Positions 2,831 to 63,794 of a stretch of DNA of 64,000 bases are shown here, piece after piece. How positions within the stretch are numbered: the stretch's first letter is position 1; each line of letters begins with the position of its first letter. The position numbers were made by a program, and so were the translations under genes. This DNA comes from an uncultured Christensenellaceae bacterium (GTDB lineage: Bacteria > Bacillota > Clostridia > Christensenellales > CAG-314): positions 55,254 to 119,253 of the forward strand of contig CAJUIZ010000003.1 of the NCBI GenBank assembly GCA_910586625.1, in the 5' to 3' direction. The notes under the pieces were generated by a model. It made no database searches. It saw only the letters and a list, made by a program, of their open reading frames with translations, and was not told where the DNA came from.

Positions 2831-3038
2831 TGCATTCTCCCGTAGGCAAATTTTGACATACGATTGTTACAACTTATCATAACAACTTTAACCCAACCTG
2901 AAAGTAAACAGCGTTCACAAATAAACGCAGCATAAATAACGAATTTATAAAACACGATAAAATTCGATAAATATTACGACGGTAAAAAAATAATTTTAAT
3001 AATTCCGTACCGAAAACAGCTTAAACAAAGCCTGAAAA

Positions 3039-5037: not shown

Positions 5038-5688
5038 CTACCGTTTGCAGATTTCCACGCCGCAGCTTGCGCCTATGCGGTCGGCGCCGTTTTCCACCAT
5101 CGCAACGGCTTCGTCGTAATTGTGTATTCCGCCGCTTGCCTTGACTTTGAGTTCATACGGATGAACCATATCCGACATAAGGCTCACCGCAGCCGTCGTA
5201 GCCCCGCCGGAGCCGAAGCCCGTGCTCGTCTTGACGTATTGCGCGCCGGCAGTTATGCACGACTTGCAGGCGGCTATAAGCTGCTTGTCGTTGAGATTGC
5301 AGGTTTCGAGAATAACCTTTAACAAAATGTCGCCGCACGCCTTTTTTACGGCGGCAATTTCCTTTTCCACCTTCTTCCAAGCGTTGACTTTTGCCCACGA
5401 CTGATTGATTACCATATCGATTTCCGTAGCGCCGTTTTTTATTGCGTTCTTCGTTTCGAACACCTTGGTTTGCGTGGTGTTTTCGCCCAAAGGAAAACCG
5501 ATTACGGTGCAAACCTTGACGTCGCTGCCTGCAAGCTCCTTGGCGGCGAGTTTTACATGGCAAGGATTGACGCATACGGACGCGAAGCCGTATTGCTTAG
5601 CTTCCTTACAAAGCGATACAATCTGACTTTCCTTAGCGGGCTTGAGCAAGGTGTGGTCTATAATTTTAGCAATTTCCTGTTTCGTCAT
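5038..5688 (-). CDS. deoC: deoxyribose-phosphate aldolase
   Basis: IDHTLLKP, VCVNP and YVKTSTGFG (Schiff-base Lys) motifs; 216 aa; AGGAGA RBS. Confidence 0.9.
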   Translation of the reverse strand: MTKQEIAKIIDHTLLKPAKESQIVSLCKEAKQYGFASVCVNPCHVKLAAKELAGSDVKVCTVIGFPLGENTTQTKVFETKNAIKNGATEIDMVINQSWAKVNAWKKVEKEIAAVKKACGDILLKVILETCNLNDKQLIAACKSCITAGAQYVKTSTGFGSGGATTAAVSLMSDMVHPYELKVKASGGIHNYDEAVAMVENGADRIGASCGVEICKR

Positions 5689-6756: not shown

Positions 6757-6763
6757 TAAATTT

Positions 6764-7052
6764 AATGCGCAACGCGCAATGCGTAATGCGTAATGAAGAA
6801 AGCCCGTTGGAACAACGGGCTTTCGTTTTTTATATAAGGTTACGCTTCGCTATATTTCTCGCTCGTTTGAAAACCTTCGCCGTCTTTTGGCGAAACTGCG
6901 CTACGCTCCGCTCGAAATGACGTTCCTTAGATTTCTCCACTCGCTTCGCTCGGTCGAAATGACGTTCATCTTCACTTCGTTCGATAAACGTTTCGGTAAA
7001 GGACACCGAATGTTGCGGCGTTCGCAAGTCTTCGACTTTCTCGGCTAAGGAC
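6764..7052 (+). repeat. composite modular repeat element, copy A
   Basis: Order of parts: five heptads (AATGCGC AACGCGC AATGCGT AATGCGT AATGAAG), a hairpin, AAGGTTACGCTTCGC, M1 (6931-6965), TCATCTTCACTTCGTTCGATAAACG, M2 (6991-7010), M3 (7017-7052). The order is colinear with copy D at 24332-24520. Confidence 0.8.
6798..6831 (+). terminator. rho-independent terminator embedded in repeat copy A
   Basis: GAAAGCCCGTTGG-aa-CAACGGGCTTTC followed by GTTTTTT, 40 nt after the stop of 6331-6756. Confidence 0.7.
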
Positions 7053-7215
7053 TTTTCTACAACTAACACCAAAAGCGAGCGTATTCCGCTTTTGCACCTT
7101 TGAGCGTAGCGAAACACGAGCCGCGTCAAACCAATCGCCGCAATGCGGCGTTGGCAGCAAGGCGAGAGCAAGGGCTGTGCCCGCAGCTTATAAAAGCGGA
7201 ATGCACGAGTGAATT

Positions 7216-8892: not shown

Positions 8893-9002
8893 AATAATAC
8901 TCTCCTTTACTGCATTAAGTATATAACATTTGTTTTCGTTTTGCAACCTTTTGAACGAATGCAACAATGCAAAAGAAATAACAATGTGTCGCTGTGCTTT
9001 TT

Positions 9003-9200
9003 AATGCGTAATGCGTAATTAGAAAAGCCCGTTTGACAACGGGCTTGCGTTTTTATAAGGTGTCGCTGCGCCGAACTTCTCCGTACGCTTCGCTTTTTTA
9101 ATGCGTAACGCGCAATGCGCAATGCGTAATTAGGGTTACGCTTCGATAGACTTCTCGGCTACTTGTCATGTCGAGCGCAGTTTCGGCAAAGGTCGCCGAA
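9003..9200 (+). repeat. modular repeat region, copy B (two heptad arrays)
   Basis: Heptads at 9003-9023 plus hairpin AAGCCCGTTTGACAACGGGCTT (9025-9046). A partial M1 lies at 9075-9095. A second five-heptad array is at 9100-9134, and M2 (TTTCGGCAAAGGTCGCCGAA) is at 9181-9200. Confidence 0.75.
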
Positions 9201-9240
9201 CGTTGCGAGACGTCTATGCGAGCGGAGCGAGTAGCATTTT

Positions 9241-18029: not shown

Positions 18030-18201
18030 AATGCGGGTGCGCTGCGCTTTTTTAATGCGTAATTAAAGGTTTCGCTGCGATAGACTTCTCCGCGCGCAAC
18101 ACTGACGTGTTGCTTGGTCGAAGTGACATTTGCAAGGTGTCGCTTCTCTTCTTAATGCGTAATGTCGGAAGCCCGTTGGAACAACGGTCTTACATTTTTT
18201 T
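18030..18201 (+). repeat. modular repeat region, copy C
   Basis: Heptads at 18054-18067. M1 at 18084-18129 carries an internal GCAACAC-tgac-GTGTTGC stem. Further heptads are at 18154-18167, followed by a degenerate hairpin (18169-18191) and T7. Confidence 0.75.
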
Positions 18202-18216
18202 ATAAGGTTTCGCTTG

Positions 18217-22657: not shown

Positions 22658-24340
22658 ATGAAAAACAAGTGGTACAAGGAAGCTGTATTTTACCAAATTT
22701 ATCCGCGAAGCTTTAAGGACTCCGACGGCGACGGCGTGGGCGACATACGCGGAATAATATCCAAAATAGACTATTTGGCGGATTTGGGCGTAGACGCTAT
22801 TTGGTTTTCGCCCCTATACGCAAGCCCCAACGCCGACTACGGCTATGATATATCCGACTACAAGGCGATAAACCCCGAATACGGTACGATGGACGACTTC
22901 GACGAGATGGTACGCCTGCTGCACGGCAAAGGCATACGGGTAATAATGGACCTTGTAATAAACCACACCAGCGACAAACACGAGTGGTTTGTCAATGCCC
23001 GTTCTTCACGCGATGACCCTTACCGCGACTACTACTACTTCCGCGACGGACGGGGCAAAAACGGCAAAAAACCGCCCAATAACTGGACGAGCTTTTTTGT
23101 GGGAAGCGCGTGGAAATACGAAGAAAACACAAAGCAATGGTATCTGCACCTGTTCGACGAAAACCAACCCGACCTTAACTACTTTAACCCGCGCGTTATG
23201 GAAGAAATAAAGGGTATTCTGCGCTTTTGGCTGGATAAGGGCGTGGACGGCTTCCGCTGCGACGTGATTACGCTGCTTTCCAAAACGGCGGGACTGCCCA
23301 GCGGCAAAAAGCGAATTGCGCTGACAGGCAGCGAATACTACATTGACGGCGACAGAATGGAAGAATATCTAGGCGAGCTTCAAGAAGTTCTGCGCGAATA
23401 CGACGCCTTTACCGTGGGCGAAAGCGTGTTTATTACGGTAGATAAAGCGTTACGCTACACAAGCGAAGACAACGAATATCTGACCACCGTGTTTTCCTTC
23501 GACCACGTTTCGGCGGACAATCGTTTCGGGATAAAGCAACTGCCGAAAAAATTTAATCTGCTTGACTTGAAGCGGGCGTTGACCCGTTGGCAGAACGGCT
23601 TGTACGGCAAAAGCTGGAATACGCTGTTTTGGGAAAACCACGACAGCGCGCGCATTGTGGGCAGGTACGTTAGCGACAGGGTAAACCGCGAAGAAGGGGC
23701 GAAGATGCTTGCGACCGTGCTGCTTACCCTTTCCGGAACGCCGTTTATCTATCAAGGGCAGGAGTTCGGCACGATTTCCGCAAGAATGACGGATATAAAG
23801 GACTACAAGGACGTGGACGCGCTACGCAGCTACGCTTTGCTTAAAAAGCTGTTCGGGAAGAAAAAAGCCATGAAAAAATTAGCGTACTGCTCGCGGGATA
23901 ACGCGCGTACCCCCGTGCAATGGGACGACACGCAAAACGCAGGCTTTACGACAGGCGAGCCTTGGCTTAAAGTTGCGCCGAGCTATCGAGATATTAACGC
24001 GAAGCAAGCGGAAAAGGACGGAAATTCCGTACTGCACTACTACAAAAAACTTATAAAGCTTCGCAAAGGCGACAAGGCGTTTGTGTACGGCAAGTATCAA
24101 GACCTGTTGCCCAAAAGTAAAAAGCTGCTTGCGTATCTCCGTGAAAGCGAATACGGAAAACTGATTGTGATAAACAATTTTTCGCTGAAAACCGCGAAAT
24201 TTACACTGCCGAAGGGTATAGACGGCGGCGCGTATACGCTGATTACAAGCAACTACGCCGATTCGCCGAAAAAACTTGGAACTACGGCTTTACGCCCATA
24301 TGAAAGTATTGTGTATAAAGCCGACGGCAAAAATGCGTAA
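22658..24340 (+). CDS. GH13 alpha-glucosidase / oligo-1,6-glucosidase
   Basis: FYQIYPRSF, DLVINHTS, DGFRCDVI, GESV and WENHDSAR conserved regions. Confidence 0.9.
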   Translation: MKNKWYKEAVFYQIYPRSFKDSDGDGVGDIRGIISKIDYLADLGVDAIWFSPLYASPNADYGYDISDYKAINPEYGTMDDFDEMVRLLHGKGIRVIMDLVINHTSDKHEWFVNARSSRDDPYRDYYYFRDGRGKNGKKPPNNWTSFFVGSAWKYEENTKQWYLHLFDENQPDLNYFNPRVMEEIKGILRFWLDKGVDGFRCDVITLLSKTAGLPSGKKRIALTGSEYYIDGDRMEEYLGELQEVLREYDAFTVGESVFITVDKALRYTSEDNEYLTTVFSFDHVSADNRFGIKQLPKKFNLLDLKRALTRWQNGLYGKSWNTLFWENHDSARIVGRYVSDRVNREEGAKMLATVLLTLSGTPFIYQGQEFGTISARMTDIKDYKDVDALRSYALLKKLFGKKKAMKKLAYCSRDNARTPVQWDDTQNAGFTTGEPWLKVAPSYRDINAKQAEKDGNSVLHYYKKLIKLRKGDKAFVYGKYQDLLPKSKKLLAYLRESEYGKLIVINNFSLKTAKFTLPKGIDGGAYTLITSNYADSPKKLGTTALRPYESIVYKADGKNA

Positions 24341-24520
24341 TGCGTAACGCTCAATGCGTAATGAAGGAAGCCCGTTTGACAACGGGCTTACATTTTCAGA
24401 AGGTTACGCTTCGCCGAATTTCTCCACGCGTTCGCCACGCTCGCTTGGTCGAAATGACTTTATCTTCACTTCGTTCGATAAACGTCGGCGTTTGCGACTG
24501 ACGTCGCTCGGCTAAGGACA
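24332..24520 (+). repeat. composite modular repeat element, copy D (colinear with copy A)
   Basis: Order of parts: five heptads at 24332-24366, hairpin at 24368-24389, AAGGTTACGCTTCGC, M1 at 24418-24458, TTATCTTCACTTCGTTCGATAAACG, M3 at 24487-24519. The first heptads overlap the last codons and the stop of the alpha-glucosidase gene. Confidence 0.8.
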
Positions 24521-24572
24521 TAGTTAAACGCTCGGTCAAAGTAACGTAGTAAGGCTGTGCGGCTGTCGCCTG

Positions 24573-24807
24573 GACTTCTCCACGCGGGGCTTCGCCCCTT
24601 GGTCGAAGTGACATAATAAATAGTTAATCGAACTGATGTAATAAATATTGGTCGAAATACTCCGCATTATTGCTTATTCATATATTAAGCAATTGTTTTG
24701 ATAGCATTTTTAGTATTATTACCGATAGTGATGCTCCGTTTCGCCAAAGGGCGGCGAAGGCATAGATGCACGGGCGTTCGCATTGCAAGCAACGCTTGGC
24801 TAAGGAC
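24573..24807 (+). repeat. additional hairpin modules (M1, M2, M3)
   Basis: M1 at 24573-24613 has stem GGGGC-ttc-GCCCC. M2 (TTTCGCCAAAGGGCGGCGAA) is at 24739-24758. An M3 variant is at 24773-24807. Confidence 0.7.
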
Positions 24808-24900
24808 ATAAACTAATAAAAACAACGCCTGACAAATTGTCGGGCGTTTATGATTGCCGTTTATTTTTTATGTGGGGGGGGATAAAAACATCACTTCTTC

Positions 24901-24998
24901 GTCAAAAGCATTTTCGCATATTCACTTTTCAATGCGACGTAACTTCTCAGTCAAAAGCATTTTAACATAATAACTTTTCAATGTAACGAATTTGCTTG
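24901..24998 (+). repeat. 49-bp tandem direct repeat, two units at about 70% identity
   Basis: Unit 1 starts GTCAAAAGCATTTTCGCATATTCACTTTTCAATGCGACG. Unit 2 starts GTCAAAAGCATTTTAACATAATAACTTTTCAATGTAACG. A G8 tract lies at 24874-24881. Confidence 0.7.
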
Positions 24999-25036
24999 TC
25001 GATGCAACACATTTGCTTTTAGTGTTGATTAAAACG

Positions 25037-25498
25037 TTATTCCGTCGGCAGCAGAGTTTTAACATAGTCGTCGGGCGGACTTTCCACGTAGGTTACATAT
25101 GAGAGTTCGCTCTCGTCGGCGCGGTAAATTTTTACCGTAAGCTTGCGCGTTTGCGCGGAATAACACACGCAGTTGAATACGATTGCAGGGACAAAGCCGT
25201 CCTTGGTAACCGTTACGGTTGCCGTACCCCATTCCGAAACGGACGCGTCGTAGCAGTTGGTTAAAGCATCCAGTTCGATTACGGGGGATACGCCCTTGTT
25301 ATCCGTATAGAAGGTTTTGCCCGCAACCGTAACGCGCGCGTTATGCACGGGAAGATTGTCCAAGCCCACCACCGTAACCCTTATATTTGTAGATTTTGCC
25401 GAAGCGGATATTGCCGACCTGTCTAACACGGTTAGCACGGACAATACCAACGCCAGTACCGTCAAAGCCGCGGCTACGCTTTTTAACGTTGCTTTCAT
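25037..25498 (-). CDS. secreted or membrane-anchored hypothetical protein (153 aa)
   Basis: N-terminal signal/anchor, then beta-rich sequence (IRVTVVGLDN..ARVTVAGKTFYTDNKG), carboxypeptidase-regulatory-like. Confidence 0.6.
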   Translation of the reverse strand: MKATLKSVAAALTVLALVLSVLTVLDRSAISASAKSTNIRVTVVGLDNLPVHNARVTVAGKTFYTDNKGVSPVIELDALTNCYDASVSEWGTATVTVTKDGFVPAIVFNCVCYSAQTRKLTVKIYRADESELSYVTYVESPPDDYVKTLLPTE

Positions 25499-25664
25499 AC
25501 GGATATTATATTGCAGAAAACTCCGCTATATGACGGTGAGTACTCAATTACAAAATACTTATAACGCAAGTATTATCGCATATTCCCCAAAGAAAACAAC
25601 TTGGAAAAGTTAGGTTACATTCGTGTTATATTTGCCGAACTCGCTATCACCTACAATCAGTCCG

Positions 25665-26567
25665 CTACTGCTCCACGCAAATCAAAATATATTCGCCGCC
25701 GCCCGTTATTTGCGCGCGTTCGCCTGCGGACATAAACGCCGTTTCGCCCTTACAAAGCGCAACGCCGTTAAGTTCAATCGAGCCGTCCGTAACAGTTACC
25801 GCAACAAAGCTGTCGTCGCGCCCTACTTCGCGTTCGCCCGCGAACCTGTACGCCGAAAAGTAACGGCACTTGGCAAGCAGGTCGCCACGCTCGGGATTGG
25901 GAACGTCGTACGCGTTGAGATTGGCAACCGCCTTGGCTTTGTCAACGTGCAGGGGACGTTTGTTGCCGTTTGCGTCCGCGCGGTCGAAGTCGTACACGCG
26001 GTAGGTAAGAGAGCTGTTTTGCTGAACTTCATACAACGTAACGCCCGATCCGATAGCGTGAATTGTGCCGCTTGGTATAAAATACGTTTCACCCTTTTTT
26101 ACGGGGACGCGGTTTAACAGCTGACACACGGTGTTACTGTCGATTGCCGCGGCAAATTCTTCCGCGGAAACGGTACGGTTAAGCCCCAAATACAGGAACG
26201 CGCCGTCGTCCGCTTCCAATATGTACCACATCTCCGTTTTGCCGAATTGCCCTTCGTGTTCGAGCGCGTATTCGTCGGACGGATGCACCTGAATAGACAG
26301 GGCTTGCGCGGAGTCGATTATTTTGCTTAGTACAGGGAAAAAAGGAAATTCGCGGCAATTAACGCCCCAATCGACGCGCGTTGCCGCTTCCGCAAGCGGT
26401 TTGCCGTCGTATTTGCCGCCGATAACGGTTGCAAGCCCGTCGGGGTGGAAAGATAATTCCCACGCTTCCGACAGCGTTGCTTCGTCCGTTTGCTTGTTCC
26501 AATCCGTTTTGAGTTTTGTGCCGCCCCACAGATAGCTTTTGAGCGCGGGGTTGAGTTTTACTATCAT
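25665..26567 (-). CDS. manA: class I mannose-6-phosphate isomerase (Bacillus type)
   Basis: YLWGG, SIQVHPSD and GKTEMWYIL motifs; 300 aa. Confidence 0.85.
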   Translation of the reverse strand: MIVKLNPALKSYLWGGTKLKTDWNKQTDEATLSEAWELSFHPDGLATVIGGKYDGKPLAEAATRVDWGVNCREFPFFPVLSKIIDSAQALSIQVHPSDEYALEHEGQFGKTEMWYILEADDGAFLYLGLNRTVSAEEFAAAIDSNTVCQLLNRVPVKKGETYFIPSGTIHAIGSGVTLYEVQQNSSLTYRVYDFDRADANGNKRPLHVDKAKAVANLNAYDVPNPERGDLLAKCRYFSAYRFAGEREVGRDDSFVAVTVTDGSIELNGVALCKGETAFMSAGERAQITGGGEYILICVEQ

Positions 26568-26685
26568 AATATTATACCGTTCGCTTTCGGGTTATTTACG
26601 CGCATACGGCGCTGATTTTGTCCGTTAAAAGGGTGATATTTTGAGATACTGCGTCTACCGCGCCATTGCTCTTTTTCTGCCGACT

Positions 26686-27117
26686 TCAACAGCGACAGCG
26701 CCCTGTTGTACTCACAAGCGCTTCGTTCTTACGTCCGAAGCCGAGATACACGTACGATTTACGTTTGTTGCCGCAGTAGTATACTGCAAAGTTCTTGACG
26801 TTGCGTACGCGGCGTTTTACAAGGTTGCGGAAAGCCTTGATTTCTTCGCACAGATGCCCCGCTCCGCCGTCCGTTTTGCGCTCGTCTATGTGCCCGTTTT
26901 GCTGCGGGCAGAAGTCGTTGACGACCAGTATAAACAGCTGCGAATAGGGAATGACGTTGGTCATATGCTGTTCGAAGGTTTTTTCGTCGCTGGACGGTCC
27001 GCAATAGGGTGCGTTTGGCGAATCGATACGCGCAATAGTTTGACAAACGGACTGAGCTATACGCTCGGTGCCCTTTTCCGATACGGTGCCGTGATAGGAT
27101 ACGAATGCTGAGTACAT
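26686..27117 (-). CDS. hypothetical protein, possibly a TIR-like domain
   Basis: Starts MYSAFVSYHG, followed by LFILVVNDF and HLCEEIKAF. This spacing loosely resembles the TIR blocks FISY / hydrophobic strand / WCxxE. RBS AAAGGAA. The family call is weak. Confidence 0.35.
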   Translation of the reverse strand: MYSAFVSYHGTVSEKGTERIAQSVCQTIARIDSPNAPYCGPSSDEKTFEQHMTNVIPYSQLFILVVNDFCPQQNGHIDERKTDGGAGHLCEEIKAFRNLVKRRVRNVKNFAVYYCGNKRKSYVYLGFGRKNEALVSTTGRCRC

Positions 27118-27237
27118 AGTGATTTTTTCCTTTGTTTTTATGCGTAACGTTGTTAACGCAAAAGTTCTTCGTTAAACGGCTCGTCGTTGCGCTCAAAGTT
27201 GATTTTTTGTCTTAGTCTTTCATTGGTTAAATAATCT

Positions 27238-27980
27238 TCAATCAACTTCTGCCGTTATAGTTTGTTTCCATTTGAGAACGCGTCCGCGAAAATAGTTATG
27301 ATTGCAGGTAATTTTCGTAACGTCGCAAACGGCATCGTCTACGAAATACACATATCCGTTATCGAAGATTATCGACGCCTGCATTATATCAGCGCAGCAA
27401 CTTGCGTCGTAAGAATAATGCATACCCGTGTTGAACTCGAATACAAGGGATATAATCGACCCCCAACAACCGTCAACCGTTACTTCTATTCTGTCGGAAA
27501 AATTTTCCGCGCTAACGTCATAGCTGCAATGATGTCGGTTATAATTCCGTCGTGGAAGTCCCAAGCGGCTTCCATCAGGTCTTTGACGTCTTTATCGTCT
27601 TTAACCAAAGTCCATTCGTTAATGCAGTTTTTACCGTTTAGTTGCCTTGCCTTTTCCAAATACTCGTCGTCAACCGTCCGCCCCTTTACAATAGCTGCAA
27701 ATAATTCGCGGTTATTTACCAGCCAATCATATCCGTGTACGTTATGAAAAGCACCGATAACACCGTAATGTAATTTGGCTTCTACAAAGTTTTCTTCGTT
27801 TGTATCAAAGATAAAAACGCGCCTGGTTAAATTGCCGCTGGTTTTGTACATATTTACGAATTGATACTTATCGTGTTCGCTATCGAAAACTATCGCGTCG
27901 GAAAAGAAACCGTCGTACGATACTGCAAAAACATAAGAGTAATATTCCCTGCCGTCTTTATCTACAACTTTTGCTATCAT
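27238..27980 (-). pseudogene. frameshifted gene of unknown function (two overlapping ORFs)
   Basis: ORFs 27486-27980 and 27238-27564 overlap by 79 nt, one nucleotide out of frame. The second ORF has no RBS of its own. The sequence reads through plausibly (..WDFHDGIITDI / SYDVSAENFSDRIEVTVDG..). An A4T5 run (minus strand) at about 27497-27510 is a likely indel site. Confidence 0.5.
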
Positions 27981-28108
27981 TTGAACAAGTTTCCTTATCT
28001 CATTATAAATAAAATATATAACAAATATTGTCCATTGTCAACAGTAACAATATTTTAAGTATAAAATACAATCGAAAAAAATTTAATTGACAAATTAGCT
28101 AAAAATTG

Positions 28109-28137
28109 TTGATAAAAAGCGCGCTTTGTGCTATATT
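28109..28137 (+). promoter_or_regulatory. sigma-70 type promoter upstream of the tRNA-Leu pair
   Basis: TTGATA (28109-28114), 17-nt spacer, TATATT (28132-28137), about 14 nt before the disrupted tRNA copy. Confidence 0.5.
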
Positions 28138-28150
28138 ATATAGGCACAAT

Positions 28151-28267
28151 GCAGGTGTGGTGGAATACTCGACTTCGTCTCGTGGCGTTCGCGACTGTCG
28201 TCGCTCGGCTAAGGGCAGACGCGTTGGACGCGTGAGATTGTAGGTATTAACCTAACTGTACTGTAAC
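28151..28267 (+). pseudogene. disrupted, truncated tRNA-Leu copy with a 47-nt repeat module in the D-loop
   Basis: GCAGGTGTGGTGGAAT (28151-28166) and GGCAGACGCGTTGGAC (28214-28229) are identical to positions 1-16 and 17-32 of the intact gene. They are separated by ACTCGACTTCGTCTCGTGGCGTTCGCGACTGTCGTCGCTCGGCTAAG, an M3 module. Similarity decays after the anticodon stem. Confidence 0.7.
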
Positions 28268-28353
28268 GCAGGTGTGGTGGAATGGCAGACGCGTTGGACT
28301 CAAAATCCAATGTAGGTGACTACGTGTGGGTTCAAGTCCCACCACCTGCACCA
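28268..28353 (+). tRNA. tRNA-Leu, anticodon CAA, CCA encoded
   Basis: GCAGGTG TG GTGGAATGGCAGACGC G TTGGA CTCAAAA TCCAA TGTAGGTGACTACGT GTGGG TTCAAGT CCCAC CACCTGC A CCA. Confidence 0.9.
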
Positions 28354-28383
28354 TTAACGGAGCGATTTGCTTCGAAGTTAAAA

Positions 28384-28410
28384 AGGAACACATTGCCGTG
28401 TTCCTTTTTG
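28384..28410. terminator. rho-independent terminator after tRNA-Leu
   Basis: AGGAACAC-attgcc-GTGTTCCT followed by TTTT, with an A-run upstream. It could also terminate the convergent XRE gene. Confidence 0.6.
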
Positions 28411-28447
28411 TCTATCATTGTGCTATTAATTTACAACTTATTGTACT

Positions 28448-28885
28448 CTATTCTCTACCCAGCAAGAAATCTATCGAACAGTTGAAATAGTTTTTAAGTA
28501 TAATCAGATTATCAACCGTCGGTAACCGCTTGCCGTTATACCAATCGTCAACTCTTGAAGGAGCAAGCTTCGTTTCTTGACACAGCTTGTAACGGGTAAC
28601 GTTATTTAGAACTAAAATGTTTCTAAAAACTTCGCAAAAGTTTTTATCCGAACGGTAGTTGGCGTTTTCGTTATACGGCGCAAAACCCAGTAACGCATCA
28701 ATAGAACAATTGCACACGTTTGCAATTTTTATCAAATTTGACGTTGAAGGCAAACGCTCTTTGCGTTTGTAACGATAAATTTCGGAAACGTTTATTCCGA
28801 CCTTATCGGCAAATTGTTCAAGCGTAAGTTTTTGGTCAAAAATCAGGTCTGAAATACTTTCGGCAAAGTTCGACAAAATATCCAT
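28448..28885 (-). CDS. tandem-HTH XRE family regulator
   Basis: Two HTH_XRE-like halves (LTLEQFADKVGINVSEIYRYKR... and VTRYKLCQETKLAPSRVDDWYNG...), each ending in CSID.LLG. Confidence 0.8.
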   Translation of the reverse strand: MDILSNFAESISDLIFDQKLTLEQFADKVGINVSEIYRYKRKERLPSTSNLIKIANVCNCSIDALLGFAPYNENANYRSDKNFCEVFRNILVLNNVTRYKLCQETKLAPSRVDDWYNGKRLPTVDNLIILKNYFNCSIDFLLGRE

Positions 28886-29018
28886 AAATTATTCCCTTCT
28901 TTTTTTATATTATCCCCCATCGATACCAAAAATAATTGCTTTTGGAAGTTGTGGGTGGTATAATTTATATGTTGTTGAAAGCGCGCTCAACAAACATAAT
29001 TAAAAGGAGAAGCAAACA

Positions 29019-29246
29019 ATGAAACAAAACGGACAAACGACTGCGCACACTATGATAACGGAAATGGAAATTTCTGACGCTGACTTTGTTTTCAAAGTAA
29101 ACACGGAAGATATTTTATTGGATTTGAAATTTTTGATTAAAGAGTATTACTGCGGAACGTTTACCAACGACGGGAAAAGCCTGATAATGCAATTCAATAA
29201 CGGGCAGAAGTTTATTTTAGACTTAAAAGAAATAACAAAAGAATAA
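29019..29246 (+). CDS. small hypothetical protein (75 aa)
   Basis: Strong RBS AAAGGAGA, divergent from the XRE gene. No family recognised. Confidence 0.5.
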   Translation: MKQNGQTTAHTMITEMEISDADFVFKVNTEDILLDLKFLIKEYYCGTFTNDGKSLIMQFNNGQKFILDLKEITKE

Positions 29247-29348
29247 TCAGCAAAAAAATACAATTATATAATAAAAGTAAGTCGCTGTAAGTGGCTTACT
29301 TTTTATTGCGAAAAGTTTATTTCTGTGCTATACTGAAACAGCCAATAT

Positions 29349-29424
29349 CTACCCGTAGTCTAATTGGATAAAATTACGCCCTCCGACGGCGTTGTTTCGG
29401 GTTCGAGTCCCGACGGGTAGACCA
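29349..29424 (+). tRNA. tRNA-Arg, anticodon CCG, CCA encoded
   Basis: CTACCCG TA GTCT AATTGGATA AAAT T ACGCC CTCCGAC GGCGT TGTT TCGGG TTCGAGT CCCGA CGGGTAG A CCA. There is one D-stem mismatch and a 4-nt variable region. Confidence 0.8.
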
Positions 29425-29433
29425 GTTTCGCAG
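29404..29433 (+). repeat. 30-bp direct repeat, copy 1 (tRNA-Arg 3' end plus 9 nt of flank)
   Basis: CGAGTCCCGACGGGTAGACCAGTTTCGCAG, identical to 29627-29656. Confidence 0.9.
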
Positions 29434-29537
29434 GCATCGGTAAGCTGCATAAAAAAGGACGCATTTATTTGCGTTCTTTTTTATATTGCCTTGTGTTTCA
29501 TCGCCTTGCCGTAAACCCTTAGGTACGGTCCGAAATA

Positions 29538-29627
29538 CTTCGCTGCGCTTCGTGGCGTTCGCAATCTTCGATTGCTCGGCTAAGAACGTAGCGTTCCGCT
29601 TTGCTCCACGTACCGACTTCGTCGGAC
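29538..29627 (+). repeat. hairpin modules (M3 plus an M1-like module) between the direct repeats
   Basis: CTTCGTGGCGTTCGCAATCTTCGATTGCTCGGCTAAG is followed by TTGCTCCACGTACCGACTTCGTCGGAC, which runs directly into the duplicated tRNA 3' fragment. Confidence 0.7.
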
Positions 29628-29656
29628 GAGTCCCGACGGGTAGACCAGTTTCGCAG
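29627..29656 (+). repeat. 30-bp direct repeat, copy 2
   Basis: Exact copy of 29404-29433. Confidence 0.9.
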
Positions 29657-29756
29657 ATTCGGTTGGAATCGCAACGCAAAAAGGGAACGGTTTAACTTCC
29701 GCTCCCTTTTATTACGTTTCTCGCATATGCGCGCTATCGGCGAGTTTCCAAATGTA

Positions 29757-30245
29757 TTACAAAACTTCGGCTAATTTCTTGACGCTGCAACCCTTGCTCG
29801 CATAATACTGCAGCATTCCTTCAATTTTACTCTTATCATAGCTTGTAATGCAATCCGACAAAACGTTAACAGCATAGCCTTCTTTAACCATATTATAGCA
29901 CGTTGATTTTACGCAAGCTATAGCGTCGGCACCGGTTACGTAGAACTCGCCGATTCCGTTTTTATTTATAAACTCAGCAAATTCTTCGCTGGTAAGCGCG
30001 TTGCCCTTCGTCTTTGTAAATATACTGTCGGATACGATTTTCAATTCGGGAACCAATTGTTCGCCGCGAGTATTAGGCTTGAAAGTTCTTGTGGCGACAG
30101 TTATATTATTGTGCTTGATATAAACCACATAGATATTGTTTGCAACAGCCCAATCGATTGCCGAGTTAATATTGCCGATAATTTCCTTATAATTCTTGGT
30201 AATATCGTTTTGAATGTCAATAACCACAAGCGCCTTATTCCGCAT
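29757..30245 (-). CDS. isochorismatase family cysteine hydrolase
   Basis: ALVVIDIQND and VTGADAIACV (nucleophile Cys) motifs; 162 aa; GGAGA RBS. Confidence 0.85.
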   Translation of the reverse strand: MRNKALVVIDIQNDITKNYKEIIGNINSAIDWAVANNIYVVYIKHNNITVATRTFKPNTRGEQLVPELKIVSDSIFTKTKGNALTSEEFAEFINKNGIGEFYVTGADAIACVKSTCYNMVKEGYAVNVLSDCITSYDKSKIEGMLQYYASKGCSVKKLAEVL

Positions 30246-57053: not shown

Positions 57054-57740
57054 TTATTCTCCTTTTATTGAGGGGTCTTGTATTCCGTTAGCTTCGAATG
57101 CCGCGGCGCGGTCGCGGCAGGTAGCGCATACGCCGCAAGGTTTTACTCCGCCAGAATAGCAGCTCCATGTATATTTGTACGGCACACCGAGCTCAAGCCC
57201 CTTTTTTACAACCTGCGATTTGTTTGAATTTACAAAAGGCGCGAGAATTCTAAGCTGTTCGCCGCTGCCCGTATAAATAGCTTCACCCATCGCAAAATTA
57301 AACTTTTCACTGCAATCGGGATAGGCGTTGCCCGTAGCATCGTCGCCGTGCGCGCCGTAATAAATAATCTCGCACCCGTGCGACAGCGCCACGCTTGCCG
57401 CCGCCGAAAGAAACAGCCCGTTGCGGAAAGGTACGTAGGTTGAAACGGGTTTGCCGTCCGTTACGGATAACTGTTCGGCATAACTTTGCAAGGGTATATC
57501 ATTGTGCGACTTCGCCAAGAGCGAACAGTCCGAGCCTTCGAATATAACCGAAAGGTCAATCCGCTTCAAAACAACACCGTAATAGTCGGCAACTTTTTGC
57601 GCGGCGTCGAGTTCTTTACTGTGAGTTTGACCGTAGTAAACGGAAAGGGCAAAAACTTCCGCCGCGCCGTATTTTTGAACCGCCAGTCCGAGACAGGTAG
57701 CGCTGTCTACACCGCCGCTTAATAAAACGAGTGCTTTCAT
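57054..57740 (-). CDS. queC: 7-cyano-7-deazaguanine synthase
   Basis: [10 protein letters not shown]-loop and a C-terminal CGVCATC zinc cluster. Start ATG 57740 overlaps the folE stop. I rejected the track's 109-aa N-terminal extension. Confidence 0.9.
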
Positions 57741-58309
57741 ACCCTGTCCCCCAAAAGATTTTGCAGAGAAACGTTGTCTTTGAATGCGCCGAAGTAAGTT
57801 TTGGTAACCGTTTTTGACGACGTGTTTTTTATTCCGCGCGAAGTCATACAGCTGTGGCAGCCTTCTATCCTTACGCCTACGTCGGGCGATAAAGCCGCAA
57901 GCGAAATTATTTCGGCAATGTCCCGTCCCAAACGCTCCTGCAATTGAAGCCGCTTTGCCGCCATATCGCAGATGCGCGCGATTTTGCTCAATCCAAGAAC
58001 TTTTCCGCGCGGAACGTAAGCCACATCTACCTTCATATCGTACATAAGCGCCATATGATGCTCGCAATAGCTGAACACGCTTACGTCCTTTATGACCACT
58101 GCTCCGCCGGAATTCGGGTCGGACGGAACTTCGAACGTTTTTCCGAACATTTCCGCAATCTCGCGGTTGGTGTATTTTATTCCTTCAAACGCCTCTTCGT
58201 ACATTCGCGCAACTCGGGCGGGCGTTTCGCGCAGACCTTCCCTGTCGGGGTCTTCGCCTATGGCGACCAATAATCCGCGGATATGTTTTTCTATTTCTTT
58301 AATATCCAT
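57737..58309 (-). CDS. folE: GTP cyclohydrolase I
   Basis: REGLRETPARV and CEHHM motifs. Confidence 0.9.
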   Translation of the reverse strand: MDIKEIEKHIRGLLVAIGEDPDREGLRETPARVARMYEEAFEGIKYTNREIAEMFGKTFEVPSDPNSGGAVVIKDVSVFSYCEHHMALMYDMKVDVAYVPRGKVLGLSKIARICDMAAKRLQLQERLGRDIAEIISLAALSPDVGVRIEGCHSCMTSRGIKNTSSKTVTKTYFGAFKDNVSLQNLLGDRV

Positions 58310-58316
58310 ACTTCTC

Positions 58317-58988
58317 CTATACCCCGCGCTTATCGGGTTTCCAGATGATTTTATGCAACTGTAATTGCAGGCGTACGCCGTTAAGCTTACGCTCTTTCAT
58401 AAACTCCGCTATTTCTTCGGGATTGATTTTTCCAAACACCGGGCTAAAATAAACGCGGCACCTGTCTGTGAGTCCGTACACCTTTATAATCTCTTCCGCA
58501 CGCGCCAAATCGCGCATATCTCCAACCACGAACTTGACCGCATCTCGCAACGTAAGGTAAGAAAAGTTTTCGGTCAGCATATACTTTTCCATTCCGCTTG
58601 ACGGAAGTTTATAATCGGCGGTAACGGCGGGACGGGGCGAAATGGAAAGGATATCTTTCAACGGCACGCTTCCATTGGTCTCTATTTCGACTTCTGCGCC
58701 CGACGCGCCCAGTAATTCTATTAGACACGCTATATCCGCCTGCAAAAGCGGTTCGCCGCCTGTTAAGGTAACGTTTTTTACTCCCGTAGATTTCACGTAT
58801 TCAACAAGATCTTCCACAGAAGCAAGCTCATATTTTACATCGTCGGTATTCGCCCAACGCGTATCGCAGTAGCCGCAATTTAGATTGCAGCCGCAAAAAC
58901 GCAGGAACACGGCAAGTTCACCGGCGCGCGGACCTTCGCCGTTTATACTTATAAACTTTTCGGCAACTTTACAATACATATTATTCAC
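58317..58988 (-). CDS. queE: 7-carboxy-7-deazaguanine synthase (radical SAM)
   Basis: FLRFCGCNLNCGYCDT cluster motif. Confidence 0.9.
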   Translation of the reverse strand: MNNMYCKVAEKFISINGEGPRAGELAVFLRFCGCNLNCGYCDTRWANTDDVKYELASVEDLVEYVKSTGVKNVTLTGGEPLLQADIACLIELLGASGAEVEIETNGSVPLKDILSISPRPAVTADYKLPSSGMEKYMLTENFSYLTLRDAVKFVVGDMRDLARAEEIIKVYGLTDRCRVYFSPVFGKINPEEIAEFMKERKLNGVRLQLQLHKIIWKPDKRGV

Positions 58989-59400
58989 CGTACACTGCGC
59001 AGTTTTCGGGCGACTCGTAAACTTTTACGCAGGAAACGGGCAAGCCCTTGCTGCATAGATCGGCATATATGCGCGCGGCGAAGTTTTCGGCAGTGGGTCT
59101 GAAATCCGTTTCAACCAATAAAAACCCTTCTTCTTTAAGCGCGGCAATAGTCGTAGGTTTAAGGGTGTGTTTTTCATAAATAAGCTTATGGTCAAAGCCT
59201 TCTGCGAGCTCTTTTACTGCACGCTTAAAATCGCCGAAGTCCAAAAGCATACCGCGCTTTTCGCCGCTTCCCTGCAATTCACCGCCGCTTATCTTCACCT
59301 CCACAACCCAGTGGTGACCGTGGATATTTGCGCACTTACCGTTATATCCGTAAAGAAAGTGCGCGCTGTCAAAACAAGCCGAAGTTTCTAAATAATACAT
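58981..59400 (-). CDS. queD: 6-carboxy-5,6,7,8-tetrahydropterin synthase
   Basis: Contains CANIHGHHW. Start ATG 59400 has an AGGGAGAG RBS. Confidence 0.9.
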   Translation of the reverse strand: MYYLETSACFDSAHFLYGYNGKCANIHGHHWVVEVKISGGELQGSGEKRGMLLDFGDFKRAVKELAEGFDHKLIYEKHTLKPTTIAALKEEGFLLVETDFRPTAENFAARIYADLCSKGLPVSCVKVYESPENCAVYGE

Positions 59401-59414
59401 ATCTCTCCCTTTGC

Positions 59415-59445
59415 AAAAAAAATACAGTCGCGACAAAACGACTGC
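59415..59445 (-). terminator. leader terminator (putative riboswitch expression platform)
   Basis: On the minus strand: CAGTCG-ttttgtcg-CGACTG followed by TATTTTTTTT, 15 nt upstream of the queD RBS. Confidence 0.6.
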
Positions 59446-59474
59446 ACCTTAGAAGATTATTTTCCATTCTAATG

Positions 59475-59517
59475 CCCTGGTTTTGTTTAACGACAGGATG
59501 GTGCAAACGAACTGTCC
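59475..59517 (-). ncRNA. putative preQ1-I riboswitch aptamer
   Basis: On the minus strand: GACAG-TTCGTTTGCACCATC-CTGTC-GTTAAACAAAACCAGGG. This gives a 5-bp P1 plus an A-rich tail, similar to known preQ1-I tails such as UUAACAAAACAAGG. The loop is longer than in the textbook examples. It sits upstream of the que operon. Confidence 0.5.
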
Positions 59518-59531
59518 GTTTAATTAGATAT

Positions 59532-59560
59532 ATAATACCACGCCTCAATGCTTATGTCAA
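59532..59560 (-). promoter_or_regulatory. sigma-70 promoter of the que operon
   Basis: On the minus strand: TTGACA, 17 nt, TATTAT, preceded by TGG (extended -10-like). Confidence 0.6.
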
Positions 59561-59725
59561 CTTAATCGAAATGCTTACGAGCCGCATATTTTCAAAATGG
59601 CAACAAAAAATCCCTCGCTTATATGCCACGGGAAAATTTAGACGGTTTAGTAGGCTGCTTTTTATTCACCGCTAACTTTGCCTTAAAAAGAATTGTCAAT
59701 GTATTTTTTTACGACAAAGCCGTTC

Positions 59726-60371: not shown

Positions 60372-62507
60372 ATGCAGGAAATCGTAAAAAGACTAAACGA
60401 CGTAAAAAAGCGGCGCGGATACACGCTTAGAATGCTTGCGGAAAAAAGCGGGCTTACGCTCGGCACGGTAAACAAAATAATGAGCGGCGAGCTGCAAAGA
60501 ATCAAACCCGAAAAGCTTTCCAAGCTTGCCGAAGCCCTTAACGTTACGATAGACTACCTTGTAAACGGCGAAGCGGACGGCGTTAGCGCACAGGCATACA
60601 GCTACGGGTTAGTGAAAATTGCCTGTATTTCCCCAAACGTCCGCGTAGCAGACGTCGGCTACAACGTGCGGCAGATTATCAAACATGCAAAGCGCGCCGC
60701 GGCAAACGGCGTAAAAATAGCGTTATTCCCCGAGCTGTGCATAACTGCGTACACCTGCGGCGACTTGTTTTTTAACGAAACGCTCAGACGCGCGGCATTA
60801 GACGGACTTAGAACACTGCGCGGCGAGCTTAAAGCGTTGGATATCGTCTGCATTGTGGGCTTGCCGATTTGCGACGACTCCGGACGGCTGTACAACGCCG
60901 CGGCGGTACTGTTCCGCGGAGAAGTACTGGGCATAGTACCAAAGGTAAATCTGCCCAACTACAACGAATTTATGGAAAAACGGCTGTTCGCGCCCTTCGA
61001 CGGAGTATCGCGCACCATCACATTGTTCGGCAAGCAAACGCCGTTTGCCAGCAAGCTGATATTTACGGATACTCTCTGCCCGGAGCTGCGGTTTGCCGTG
61101 GAAATATGCGAAGACGTGTGGGTTGCCGATTCGCCGTCCGTTTCGCACTCCTTTGCGGGGGCTAACGCCGTATTCAACCTGTCGGCAAGCAACGAAACGA
61201 TTGTCAAAAGCGACTACCGCAAAAAAATGATAGAAATACAGTCCGCCACTTGCGGAGTCGTGTACGCGTACTGCTCGGCGGGACCGTCGGAATCCACTTC
61301 GCAAACGGTGTTTTCCGCACACAATATAATATGCGAAAACGGCGAAGTATTAGCGGAAGCCGCGCCCTTTACTACGGGCTACGCCGAAGCGGAAGCGGAC
61401 TTGGGCTACATTGCCAACGAACGCGCGCGGTTAGACCGCTCCGAAAACGGGCAGGGCTACGCGTACGTTAACTTCGAGCTGCCCCTAAACGGAATCGTGC
61501 GGCGAGTATACTCTCCGCGCCCCTTTGTGCCTGCTAATAAAGCTCGGCGCAATACCGTGTGCGAGCGCGCCCTTACGATACTTGCCTACGGGCTGAAAAA
61601 GCGCATAGAGCATACCCGCGCGGACAAGCTTGTAATAGGCGTATCGGGCGGGTCGGACAGCACGCTTGCACTGCTTGTGTGCAAACGGGCGTTGGATCTA
61701 TTAAAACGCCCGATATCGGACATAACAGCCGTTACAATGCCCTGCTTCGGCACAAGCGAACGCACCCTTGCCAATTCCGTCGCGCTTGCCCAAGCAATCG
61801 GCGCGACGGTTAAAAAAATAGATATCTCCGCAACCGTAACGCGGCACTTGAAGGATATTAACCACGACATAACGGACACAAACGTCACCTACGAAAACGC
61901 CCAAGCGCGCGAACGCACGCAAGTATTGATGGACTTGGCAAACGACGTGAACGGGCTTGTTATCGGCACGGGGGACGCTTCGGAAGCGGCGCTCGGATGG
62001 GCTACCTACAACGGCGACCATATGTCTATGTACGCCGTAAACGCGTCCGTTCCCAAAACGTTGGTGTTGGCAATCATCGCTTACCAAGCGGAGCTGAGCC
62101 AAGGCGAATTGAAGCGCGTGTTACAGGACGTGCTGGATACGCCCATAAGCCCCGAGCTGCTGCCGCCGACTTCCGACGGGCAAATACTGCAAAAAAGCGA
62201 AAACGCGATAGGTCCGTACGAGCTGCACGACTACTTTCTGTTTATGCTGATACGCAAGGGCTTTACGCCGAGCAAAGTATACGCGTTGGCAAAGATTTCC
62301 TTTGCCGATAAATACGACGACGAAACAATCTACAAATGGCTGCAAACGTTTATACGGCGGTTCTTCTCGCAGCAGTTCAAGCGCGGCTGTTCGCCGGACG
62401 GAGTGCGGCTCGGCTCGGTAGATTTGAGCAAATACGGGCTTCGTATGCCTTCGGACGCGTGCGCGGACGCGTGGCTTGCCGACCTTGAAATGGTAAAGCC
62501 GCAATAA
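60372..62507 (+). CDS. nadE: glutamine-dependent NAD(+) synthetase with an N-terminal XRE-type HTH domain
   Basis: aa 1-65 read YTLRMLAEKSGLTLGTVNKIMSGE...LSKLAEALNVTIDYLV, a Cro/C1 HTH. From about aa 76 there is a CN-hydrolase domain (LFPELCITAYTCGD). The ATP-PPase motif is GVSGGSDS. One uninterrupted frame of 711 aa. Confidence 0.85.
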   Translation: MQEIVKRLNDVKKRRGYTLRMLAEKSGLTLGTVNKIMSGELQRIKPEKLSKLAEALNVTIDYLVNGEADGVSAQAYSYGLVKIACISPNVRVADVGYNVRQIIKHAKRAAANGVKIALFPELCITAYTCGDLFFNETLRRAALDGLRTLRGELKALDIVCIVGLPICDDSGRLYNAAAVLFRGEVLGIVPKVNLPNYNEFMEKRLFAPFDGVSRTITLFGKQTPFASKLIFTDTLCPELRFAVEICEDVWVADSPSVSHSFAGANAVFNLSASNETIVKSDYRKKMIEIQSATCGVVYAYCSAGPSESTSQTVFSAHNIICENGEVLAEAAPFTTGYAEAEADLGYIANERARLDRSENGQGYAYVNFELPLNGIVRRVYSPRPFVPANKARRNTVCERALTILAYGLKKRIEHTRADKLVIGVSGGSDSTLALLVCKRALDLLKRPISDITAVTMPCFGTSERTLANSVALAQAIGATVKKIDISATVTRHLKDINHDITDTNVTYENAQARERTQVLMDLANDVNGLVIGTGDASEAALGWATYNGDHMSMYAVNASVPKTLVLAIIAYQAELSQGELKRVLQDVLDTPISPELLPPTSDGQILQKSENAIGPYELHDYFLFMLIRKGFTPSKVYALAKISFADKYDDETIYKWLQTFIRRFFSQQFKRGCSPDGVRLGSVDLSKYGLRMPSDACADAWLADLEMVKPQ

Positions 62508-62525
62508 AACAAGGGTGAACGACTT

Positions 62526-63482: not shown

Positions 63483-63631
63483 AAAAATTAATTCCTTTAC
63501 CTGTCGGGTTTATGTTGTATTTTAGTATAGCGGACAGAAAAAAACTTAATATTTGCCCGATAGGCAACGAAAAAGTTTTATATTAGGTACTTCGGGAGAA
63601 ATATATGAATTATAGTGCGACTATCGTCTGG

Positions 63632-63666
63632 ATTTCTCCGTTCGCTTCGCTCAGTCGAAATGACAT
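63632..63666 (+). repeat. solo M1 hairpin module
   Basis: ATTTCTCCGTTCGCTTCGCTCAGTCGAAATGACAT matches the M1 consensus TTCTCC...GTCGAAATGAC. Confidence 0.7.
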
Positions 63667-63794
63667 AATAAAATCGAGTCAAAACAAAATATATAAAATT
63701 AAGTATCGCTTTGAATAAAAAATTATCACGCCTGCGGGGCGTAAATTGAGTTTTATTTTTTCTTTTGGTGTAAAATAGTTACACAAGTTTAACT

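Follow-up and report, generated by a model that had tools for sequence, protein, structure and literature searches.

A disrupted tRNA-Leu(CAA) copy in a Christensenellaceae genome as the probable scar of a miniature mobile element that targets tRNA loops

In a 64,000-nucleotide stretch of the genome of an uncultured Christensenellaceae bacterium (GenBank assembly GCA_910586625.1, contig CAJUIZ010000003.1, positions 55,254 to 119,253; hereafter the window, in which all positions are numbered from its first nucleotide), the promoter of the tRNA-Leu(CAA) gene is followed first by a broken copy of the start of that gene, interrupted by a 47-nt hairpin element that we call M3, and only then by the intact gene. 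This arrangement raises the question of how a disrupted tRNA copy came to lie between a promoter and its gene, and whether it serves any purpose there. Based on the analyses below, we assign a probability of roughly 0.6 to the reading that the feature is the scar of a miniature mobile element that targets tRNA loops, the insertion of which was probably tied to a local duplication.

The locus opens with a sigma-70-type promoter (28109–28137, + strand; TTGATA-17-TATATT, TG-extended), which scores 10/12 in a promoter scan and, as the preliminary description of this locus had claimed, is the sole site of at least 10/12 on the + strand upstream of tRNA-Leu; no promoter-like site passes the scan between 28138 and 28267. 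Part A of the broken copy (28151–28166, + strand; GCAGGTGTGGTGGAAT) corresponds to nt 1–16 of tRNA-Leu, comprising the 5' acceptor strand, the 5' D stem and the start of the D loop, and is identical at 16/16 positions to 28268–28283 of the intact gene. Part B (28214–28229, + strand; GGCAGACGCGTTGGAC) corresponds to nt 17–32, with the remaining D arm, the 5' anticodon stem and the first loop base, and is likewise identical (16/16) to 28284–28299. Direct reading and blastn-short agree on both 16-mers (E = 0.001 each in the 64-kb window), so that the initial observation of two identical tRNA-Leu halves split in the D-loop is borne out. The split point is GGAAT|GGCAGA, and exactly 47 nt are inserted there. 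This insert, M3 (28167–28213, + strand; ACTCG...GGCTAAG), is recovered with E = 2.7e-11 by a profile built from copies in other genomes, which establishes it as a real module.

A filler of 38 nt, delimited by direct reading (28230–28267, + strand), joins the broken copy to the intact tRNA-Leu(CAA) gene (28268–28353, + strand; ARAGORN, and Rfam RF00005 at 58 bits). The intact gene is identical to that of the related sequence L150, and differs by 1 nt from those of L004 and L156. Downstream of it we read by eye a terminator-like hairpin (28385–28409, + strand; GGAACAC-attgcc-GTGTTCC followed by a T run), which is kept in L004 and L156 and is absent from the terminator scan listing. The similarity of the broken copy to tRNA-Leu ends abruptly past nt 32 and the T arm is lacking; consistently, cmscan at E ≤ 5 detects no tRNA in the broken copy (28151–28267). 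The preliminary description was thus right about the missing T arm, but not about a gradual decay after the anticodon stem: the heptamer TGTAGGT (28239–28245), considered as a retained remnant of the variable arm, is a doubtful one, as L004 reads TGGCAGGT there and does not keep the motif. No convincing source of the filler was found elsewhere in the window by blastn-short; a candidate at 25608–25658 (minus strand) shares two 10-mers with it, the sequence between which is unrelated, and was taken as a chance match. The junction region contains two short palindromes, ACGCGT-tgg-ACGCGT (28219–28233) and TAGGT-atta-ACCTA (28241–28254).

An ENA metagenome scaffold and the NCBI metagenome-assembled genome (MAG) GCA_948905855.1, which were assembled independently, show exactly this arrangement, and the Logan assembly L004 has it at about 5% divergence. 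As independent assemblies share it, an assembly artefact is excluded. The species of the window is represented in about 460 blocks of the sequence collection searched. Comparison of the locus in related genomes, proposed with the preliminary description, yielded both states. L004 is filled, like the window. L156 and L157, whose flanking helix-turn-helix (HTH) protein is 94% identical to that of the window, and whose tRNA and 115 nt downstream are identical to those of L004, have neither the broken copy nor M3; the same holds for the more distant L150 (HTH protein 65% identical). In these three, a promoter of the family AAAATTGTTGATAAAA-N12-TGTGyTATATTATwTAGGCAC lies 0–6 nt upstream of a single intact tRNA-Leu(CAA), and in the window and L004 the same promoter abuts the broken copy. 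Since the promoter of the unbroken relatives abuts their sole tRNA-Leu gene, the broken copy occupies the ancestral gene position and the state of the window is derived. Two insertions define the derived state: M3 at 16|17, and at 32|33 a stretch of 70 nt that comprises the filler and a second copy of nt 1–32. Between the window and L004, divergence amounts to 1/42 positions in the promoter and 18% in the filler. In L005 and L006, which encode more distant homologues of the 164-amino acid protein that flanks the locus, there is no tRNA nearby, synteny being lost at that distance. The surroundings of tRNA-Leu vary as well: L156 and L157, like L052, have tRNA-Arg(CCG) in divergent orientation just upstream of the tRNA-Leu promoter, and L150 has the HTH gene upstream and tRNA-Glu(CTC) downstream of tRNA-Leu. 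These tRNA loci appear to be rearrangement hot spots.

With the intact gene as the empty site, the boundaries of M3 (ACTCG...CTAAG) are exact and there is no target duplication. Precise insertion was likewise found in other genomes at tRNA-Arg(CCT), Thr(CGT), Met(CAT), Arg(ACG), Thr(GGT), Leu(UAA) and Leu(CAA); the comparison of filled and empty sites covers the window plus at least 10 other tRNA loci, and none has a target-site duplication. The flanks follow a clear pattern in 52 distinct flank pairs, with A at −3 (39/51), A at −2 (42/51) and T at −1 (49/51) on the 5' side, where G is favored at −5, and G or C at +1 (46/51) and G or A at +2 (51/51) on the 3' side. The orientation of M3 is fixed, in that the motif is always on the 5' side of the element, whichever tRNA strand is struck. 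As judged from these sequences, the target of M3 is the position 3' of (G-N-)A-A-T and before S-R-C, to which the tRNA-Leu D-loop (GGAAT^GGC) is a perfect match. Copies outside tRNA sequences nest in another module, which has an inverted repeat (ATTKC...GMAAT^GAC) whose 3' foot is their exact position, and it is this nesting that accounts for the "GAC" behind many M3 copies. In the window, the array module GATTTCTCC..CGCTCGGTCGAAATGAC has a GAAAT^GAC foot, the kind of site at which M3 usually inserts outside tRNAs in other genomes. Because the motif is read on the strand of M3 itself, antisense hits cannot have occurred at the RNA level, which makes DNA the target. That loops and junctions are preferred, whichever the strand, suggests that this DNA is recognized in a folded, single-stranded form.

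The M3 family comprises two-hairpin elements of 42–57 nt in gut Clostridia related to Pumilibacter, a group to which the organism of the window belongs as well. An alignment of 56 copies gives the full-length consensus ACTCG-(short hairpin)-CTCGTGGCGTTC-(GC-stem-TNC-stem-GC)-TCGGCTAAG. In the window copy, hairpin 1 is GAC-TTC-GTC (28171–28179) and hairpin 2 is GCGAC-TGTC-GTCGC (28191–28204), followed by the tail TCGGCTAAG; hairpin 2 is present in both the minimum free energy and the centroid folds. Throughout the family hairpin 1 is short or imperfect, and hairpin 2 occurs in 30 distinct sequences, mostly perfect stems of 4–7 bp with 3-nt loops (TTC, TGC or TAC). As the 30 stem variants remain complementary, the structure of hairpin 2 is kept while its sequence changes. 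The folding energies of single copies (z from +0.4 to −2.1) are no different from those of shuffled sequences, and that of the 203-nt region 28151–28353 (z = −1.7) is not unusual; we therefore left thermodynamic stability out as evidence and used stem co-variation instead.

When one genome from each GTDB species was scanned for the core GGCGTTYGC-N8-20-CTYGGCTAAG, at least 117 loci were obtained, and 49 full-length copies, with the tRNA and flank counts given for them, were drawn from the matches listed in that scan. The listed matches belong to gut Clostridia MAGs labelled Christensenellales, Eubacteriales or Ruminococcaceae and to Pumilibacter muris and P. intestinalis, besides chance matches in unrelated phyla. 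The cultured mouse-gut strain P. muris CLA-AA-M08 is an M3 carrier, with one copy in a tRNA-Met pseudo-copy (L027). A metagenome scan gave 24 loci with a general M3 pattern and no match with the D-loop-specific pattern GGAATACT...GGCTAAGGGCAGAC. The strict M3 pattern is absent from 2.9 million viral contigs, where a loose pattern gave two chance-like matches, and M3 is therefore, as far as visible, not phage-borne. No Rfam family matches the module or the broken copy, either at the gathering threshold over the window or at E ≤ 5 over 24200–29800, where cmscan returned only the intact tRNAs and chance-level matches. Literature searches by concept and by exact motif strings returned unrelated papers or primers only.

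The window holds further relatives of the insert. A core copy at 24487–24516 (+ strand; GGCGTTTGC-hairpin-GCTCGGCTAAG) matches the profile with E = 4e-5, and the 3' 31 nt of the tRNA-Leu insert are 93.5% identical to 24487–24517, with the same unusual hairpin GCGACTGaCGTCGC (GCGACTGwCGTCGC). Judging by the atypical hairpin that the two copies have in common, M3 copies itself within this genome. A second full-length M3 (29538–29584, + strand; E = 9.5e-11) lies 114 nt downstream of tRNA-Arg(CCG), in module DNA rather than in tRNA-derived flanks; its healed flanks, the two sides joined as if M3 were absent, match the tRNA at 11/24 positions. At 7017–7050 and 24773–24805, as at 24487–24516, the M3 core (GGCGTTYGC-hairpin-CTYGGCTAAG) is combined with other 5' parts, and it may be the shared end of several element types. 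Further 5' variants of the core occur in other genomes, for instance in L009/L029/L030 and L033/L060.

Is the proximity to a tRNA gene peculiar to this locus? Among the full-length copies, which were fetched by the module pattern alone, 31/49 have a tRNA gene no more than 450 nt away, against an expectation of about 4% (p about 1e-30); counted as independent loci, the figure is 18/35 (p about 3e-16). The healed flanks match the adjacent tRNA at 18 or more of 24 positions in 22/37 copies. In the preliminary description, a lack of other tRNA-module junctions had been set down as an outcome that would speak against it; related genomes provided at least 18 independent junctions, and within the window a fragment of tRNA-Arg lies beside module DNA. 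The insertion positions within the tRNA sequences cover several loops and junctions. M3 was found at position 16 in the D-loop of Leu CAA (three lineages) and Leu UAA and at position 8 of Thr GGT, in sense orientation; at position 5 of Arg ACG, antisense; at positions 30, 34/35 and 39 in the anticodon arm of Thr CGT and Met CAT; at positions 56/57 in the T-loop of Arg CCT, Glu CTC and Thr CGT, antisense; and at position 66 of Pro CGG. In a human-gut species, identified in the metagenome scan, a tRNA-Leu(CAA) pseudo-copy of 1–2 tandem units lies downstream of the intact gene and carries M3 behind GGAAT in its D-loop.

None of the M3-bearing tRNA sequences examined is a working gene: each is a tandem copy that is truncated or defective in some other way, and each has an intact neighbor. 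In the window and in L051, L091, L112, L109, L027, L071 and L105, 5' tRNA parts lie upstream of the gene and a leader of 6–20 nt is repeated along with them; in L018, L057, L052, L119 and L131, 3' parts or nearly full copies lie downstream. A start of the duplication at the transcription start was considered and rejected, as the duplicated leaders of about 6–20 nt do not follow the predicted start sites. L071 contains an array of up to six partial-copy units. The M3-bearing copies of L052 and L131 extend to the CCA end, and longer copies lack the 5' acceptor strand or have second inserts. A second, different short insert is found in the T arm of M3-bearing tRNA copies in L119 (about 5617–5640) and L071 (about 2173–2215); other module types may land in tRNA pseudo-copies too. 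Overall, partial same-strand copies accompany 26/37 tRNAs with M3 within 800 nt, vs. 2/23 without M3 (Fisher p = 3e-6), a count that covers 60 tRNAs in the 1.12 Mb of DNA analyzed (for other genomes, 8-kb pieces).

A second case in the window concerns tRNA-Arg(CCG). A partial 3' copy of this gene (29627–29656, + strand) consists of nt 56–76 plus 9 nt of trailer and is a direct repeat of 29404–29433. The repeats are spaced 223 nt apart, with a terminator-like hairpin (29446–29480) and the full-length M3 at 29538–29584 between them. The same nt-56 fragment is found 158 nt downstream of tRNA-Arg(CCG) in L052 and is absent from L004.

How insertion and duplication might be connected is best considered from the ancestral state, which would have consisted of a promoter, a short leader, one tRNA-Leu(CAA) and a terminator. 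In the derived state the first 32 nt are present twice, with M3 between nt 16 and 17 of the promoter-proximal copy and a 38-nt filler leading to the complete gene. Most likely, insertion or cleavage in the tRNA loop and tandem duplication took place in one replication-linked repair event, by template switching or fold-back, which would leave one disrupted partial copy plus one intact gene. M3 prefers to land at the 3' foot of a further hairpin module or, in tRNA genes, at loops and junctions on either strand. The duplication breakpoint is 5–30 nt away from M3. At 30/50 distinct sites, an inverted repeat of 5 bp or more ends 0–1 nt from the M3 junction, vs. 6–9% of control AAT^SR sites, and at 11/50 the repeat measures 7 bp or more, vs. 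0.8% of controls. In the tRNA cases, the arm next to M3 consists of 6–12 nt of tRNA at the insertion point and the other arm is its reverse complement, where the tRNA homology ends; examples are ATTCTCGC-c-GCGAGAAT in L051, ATTCGTAA-tc-TTACGAAT in L112 and TTCCACCAC-cctc-GTGGCGGAA in L131. Because partial copies are about 8-fold more frequent at tRNAs with M3, because M3 lies near the breakpoints, and because palindromes occur at the junctions, we argue for a mechanistic link between insertion and duplication. The version that we favor, at about even odds, is that a DNA end existed at the target when the junction formed, by run-off copying after a template switch, with cleavage and duplication as one event. 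An attraction of M3 to 3' hairpin feet, including fold-back junctions made earlier, fits as an alternative. More tentatively, the element could be structure-guided, recognizing the cloverleaf loops of single-stranded tRNA-gene DNA (AAT^SRC) by means of a putative enzyme, with the coupled duplication regenerating the hit gene via fold-back or run-off copying. Of the two origins offered in the preliminary description, the cross-genome data favor tRNA targeting with partial duplication over a tandem duplication followed by insertion and decay.

Several observations weigh against a coupled insertion and duplication by a mobile element at this locus. The M3 copy of the window has no palindrome abutting its junction, only the short ones 5 and 27 nt downstream, and for this reason the coupling at tRNA-Leu is extrapolated from other loci. 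Selection alone could yield the association, since insertions in the sole copy of a tRNA would be lost. In L105 (about 2848–2887, reverse strand), one partial tRNA-Thr(GGT) unit without M3 lies within an M3-bearing array; it could reflect precise excision or a duplication older than the insertion. This unit, together with the 2/23 M3-free tRNAs that have partial copies, indicates that duplication can arise or persist without M3. Between the window and L004, parts A and B with M3 differ at 4/79 positions, vs. 32/169 in the upstream spacer and filler (p = 0.003), a gap that is unexpected for a purely neutral scar; the lower divergence could reflect homogenization by the intact gene or other M3 copies, a constraint on leader structure, or noise from two sequences. 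Finally, Pfam searches found no transposase, integrase or reverse transcriptase among the 39 open reading frames (ORFs) of the window that were examined, all of them housekeeping or carbohydrate-use genes, and tblastn with IS200/IS608 TnpA gave no match in the 1.12 Mb, a weak negative, as other genomes were covered in 8-kb pieces.

The alternative that survives best, although we consider it unlikely, separates the two events: a partial duplication would have arisen by chance, and M3 would survive only in the redundant copy, without being causal. Such a selection filter readily accommodates that all M3-bearing tRNA sequences are defective and have an intact gene alongside, as well as the M3-free unit of L105, the partial copies at 2/23 tRNAs without M3, and the missing palindrome at the junction in the window. 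It does not account for partial copies being about 8-fold commoner with M3 (70% vs. 9%), and independent events would not be expected to place the breakpoints in a cluster 5–30 nt from M3, or to let one arm of the fold-back often end exactly at the insertion point. In addition, the same D-loop site was struck in at least three lineages with differing duplication architecture.

Whichever way the broken copy arose, the intact tRNA-Leu is probably read through a 117-nt leader of pseudo-tRNA and hairpins from the ancestral promoter and released by RNase P. Read-through is the likely mode of expression because no replacement promoter is seen and the filler is poorly conserved, and the proposal of read-through from a single promoter made in the preliminary description gains indirect support from the unbroken relatives, in which the same promoter abuts the tRNA, and from the lack of a second promoter. 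The leader might then have been domesticated, being kept for RNase P processing, stability, the dosage of tRNA-Leu(CAA) or as a small RNA, which would be compatible with either origin. We regard this as improbable. It would fit the position of the broken copy between the only promoter and the tRNA, an arrangement with a partial copy that recurs at several other loci, and the divergence of 5% for the broken copy with M3 vs. 18–19% for the adjacent non-coding DNA; moreover, in the predicted minimum free energy fold the broken copy can pair through its 5' acceptor strand with the 3' acceptor strand of the intact tRNA. Against this, the conservation is that of two diverged sequences, the fold of the whole region is unexceptional (z = −1.7), and L156/L157 and L150 do without a broken copy. 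Elsewhere, partial copies are found behind terminators, upstream as well as downstream of the gene and in both orientations, and as many as six may form an array. Since close relatives lack the broken copy, and copies elsewhere vary in position and orientation, it is best explained as a by-product and is most likely non-functional; a role of the pseudo-copy as a processing leader, as put forward in the preliminary description, has a low probability, its single hint being the lower divergence relative to the flanking DNA.

The tRNA repeats could also be attachment-site remnants of a decayed element with a tyrosine integrase, such as a phage or island, with M3 as a bystander. We consider this very improbable, even though tRNA genes are classic integration sites, tRNA-Arg(CCG) has a 30-nt direct repeat of its 3' end about 200 nt downstream, and the gene order beside it departs from that of L004 exactly after the CCA. 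At tRNA-Leu, it is the first 32 nt that are repeated, a mere 38 nt separate the two copies, and M3 interrupts the fragment instead of lying between the repeats; the 39 ORFs include no integrase, the module is absent from the 2.9 million viral contigs, and its eight insertion positions in tRNA, on both strands, are unlike integrase core sites. The least probable alternative is a tRNA with a D-loop intron, half of a split tRNA, or an assembly artefact: the insert is indeed precise and hairpin-rich and the M3-bearing copies of L052 and L131 reach the CCA end, but homology ends at nt 32 and no complete tRNA body flanks the insert, the anticodon loop, the T arm and the 3' acceptor strand all being absent from the broken copy. 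Where longer copies occur in other genomes, they are without the 5' acceptor strand or have second inserts, and independent assemblies agree.

A mobile element with a preference for tRNA loops invites comparison with known systems, and the miniature derivatives of IS200/IS605 (PATEs), moved by HUH/Y1 enzymes, come closest to M3 in their mode of working. In both, the target is not duplicated, insertion occurs 3' of a short invariant sequence and always in the same orientation to it, hairpins make up the core, empty sites are seamless, and the targets resemble folded single strands. M3 is far smaller (42–57 nt), and its target is AAT in the loops of tRNA genes or at hairpin feet. We know of no description of local tandem duplication with fold-back palindromes at insertions of the IS200/IS605 family. 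With the REP/BIME repeats of Enterobacteria and Pseudomonas, which have RAYT transposases, M3 shares short extragenic hairpin repeats, mosaic arrays at gene ends, and variable complementary stems. It differs from them in starting with ACTCG, having two hairpins and no conserved 5' motif of the GTAG type (56 copies), in residing in a Gram-positive relative of Clostridium, and in its precise single-copy insertions in tRNA; no RAYT gene was seen by Pfam among the 39 ORFs examined in the window.

Pneumococcal BOX, the nested RUP/SPRITE elements and Correia elements (classical miniature inverted-repeat transposable elements) resemble M3 as modular, nested small repeats that can be co-transcribed with neighboring genes. 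They have terminal inverted repeats and TA-like target duplications and do not target tRNA, whereas M3 lacks both of the former features; its two ends, ACTCGAC... and ...GGCTAAG, do not form an inverted repeat. Insertion at a set point relative to a hairpin is shared with class C group II introns (after terminators), IS1397 and ISKpn1 (in REPs) and IS1111 (in attC), but such elements are autonomous, of kilobase size and encode their enzymes, whereas M3 has 47 nt and is non-coding. The use of tRNA landing sites, with partial tRNA repeats left behind, is shared with tyrosine-integrase islands and the Ty3/TRE5 retroelements. Integrases, however, use one core site near the tRNA 3' half and displace the 3' fragment to the far end of a large element, while the repeats at M3 are adjacent to each other, and Ty3/TRE5 insert beside tRNA, while M3 inserts within loops, on either strand. 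Membership of M3 in the IS200/IS605, REP/BIME, BOX/RUP or stem-loop-targeting families is not established. What distinguishes M3 is its systematic targeting of tRNA-gene loops and the tandem partial duplication with fold-back junctions; the literature searches turned up neither, and both are apparently undescribed.

Although bacterial genomes often contain small hairpin repeats, their movement and target choice are known for very few; the M3 family offers many precise pairs of filled and empty sites plus a clear target rule. If insertion and duplication are indeed one event, M3 would represent a new route for mobile DNA into essential genes without killing the host, and would also give rise to arrays of tRNA pseudogenes and to rearrangement breakpoints where tRNA genes lie in abundant gut Clostridia. 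If, in addition, the element is guided by structure, this would amount to a "self-healing" invasion of essential, highly conserved genes. In practical terms, M3-tRNA units can lead both the annotation of tRNAs and the assembly of MAGs astray. Pre-tRNAs also acquire structured leaders through them, and the effect on processing is testable in the cultured carrier P. muris.

Other features of the window can be described more briefly. Mosaic arrays of short modules lie at gene ends (6760–7055, 9000–9240, 18040–18215, 24329–24810 and 63620–63670), and include runs of the heptamer TAATGCG and four copies of the terminator hairpin AAGCCCGTTkGAACAACGGGCTT. In L004 (2364–2550), nadE-trmB lies about 190 nt behind tRNA-Arg(CCG); in the window, these genes are found at 60372–63197. 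The extra DNA of about 30.8 kb in the window (29425 to about 60215) contains sugar-use genes, an aminoacyl-tRNA synthetase, tRNA-Gly and queC/queE, and the left breakpoint of the difference lies exactly past the CCA of tRNA-Arg(CCG). As no integrase is seen, this difference is more likely a rearrangement than an island.

Beside the tRNA-Leu promoter, 27486–27980 (minus strand) encodes a 164-amino acid ORF that is a shortened form of a family of 241–248 amino acids and 92% identical to P0001. The identical contig L001 has a separate ORF of 61 amino acids behind it, a pattern that points to a frameshift or a split of the gene in this strain. The region 28001–30000, with two tRNAs, the HTH gene and an ORF of 75 amino acids, has the lowest G+C content of the window (0.397 vs. 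about 0.47). Two tandem AT-rich units of 49 nt, 80% identical to each other, are located in the intergenic region upstream of 25037–25498 (24888–24985). Lastly, a segment of 2.1 kb (57476–59598) is 87% identical to a contig of P. muris CLA-AA-M08 (L065).

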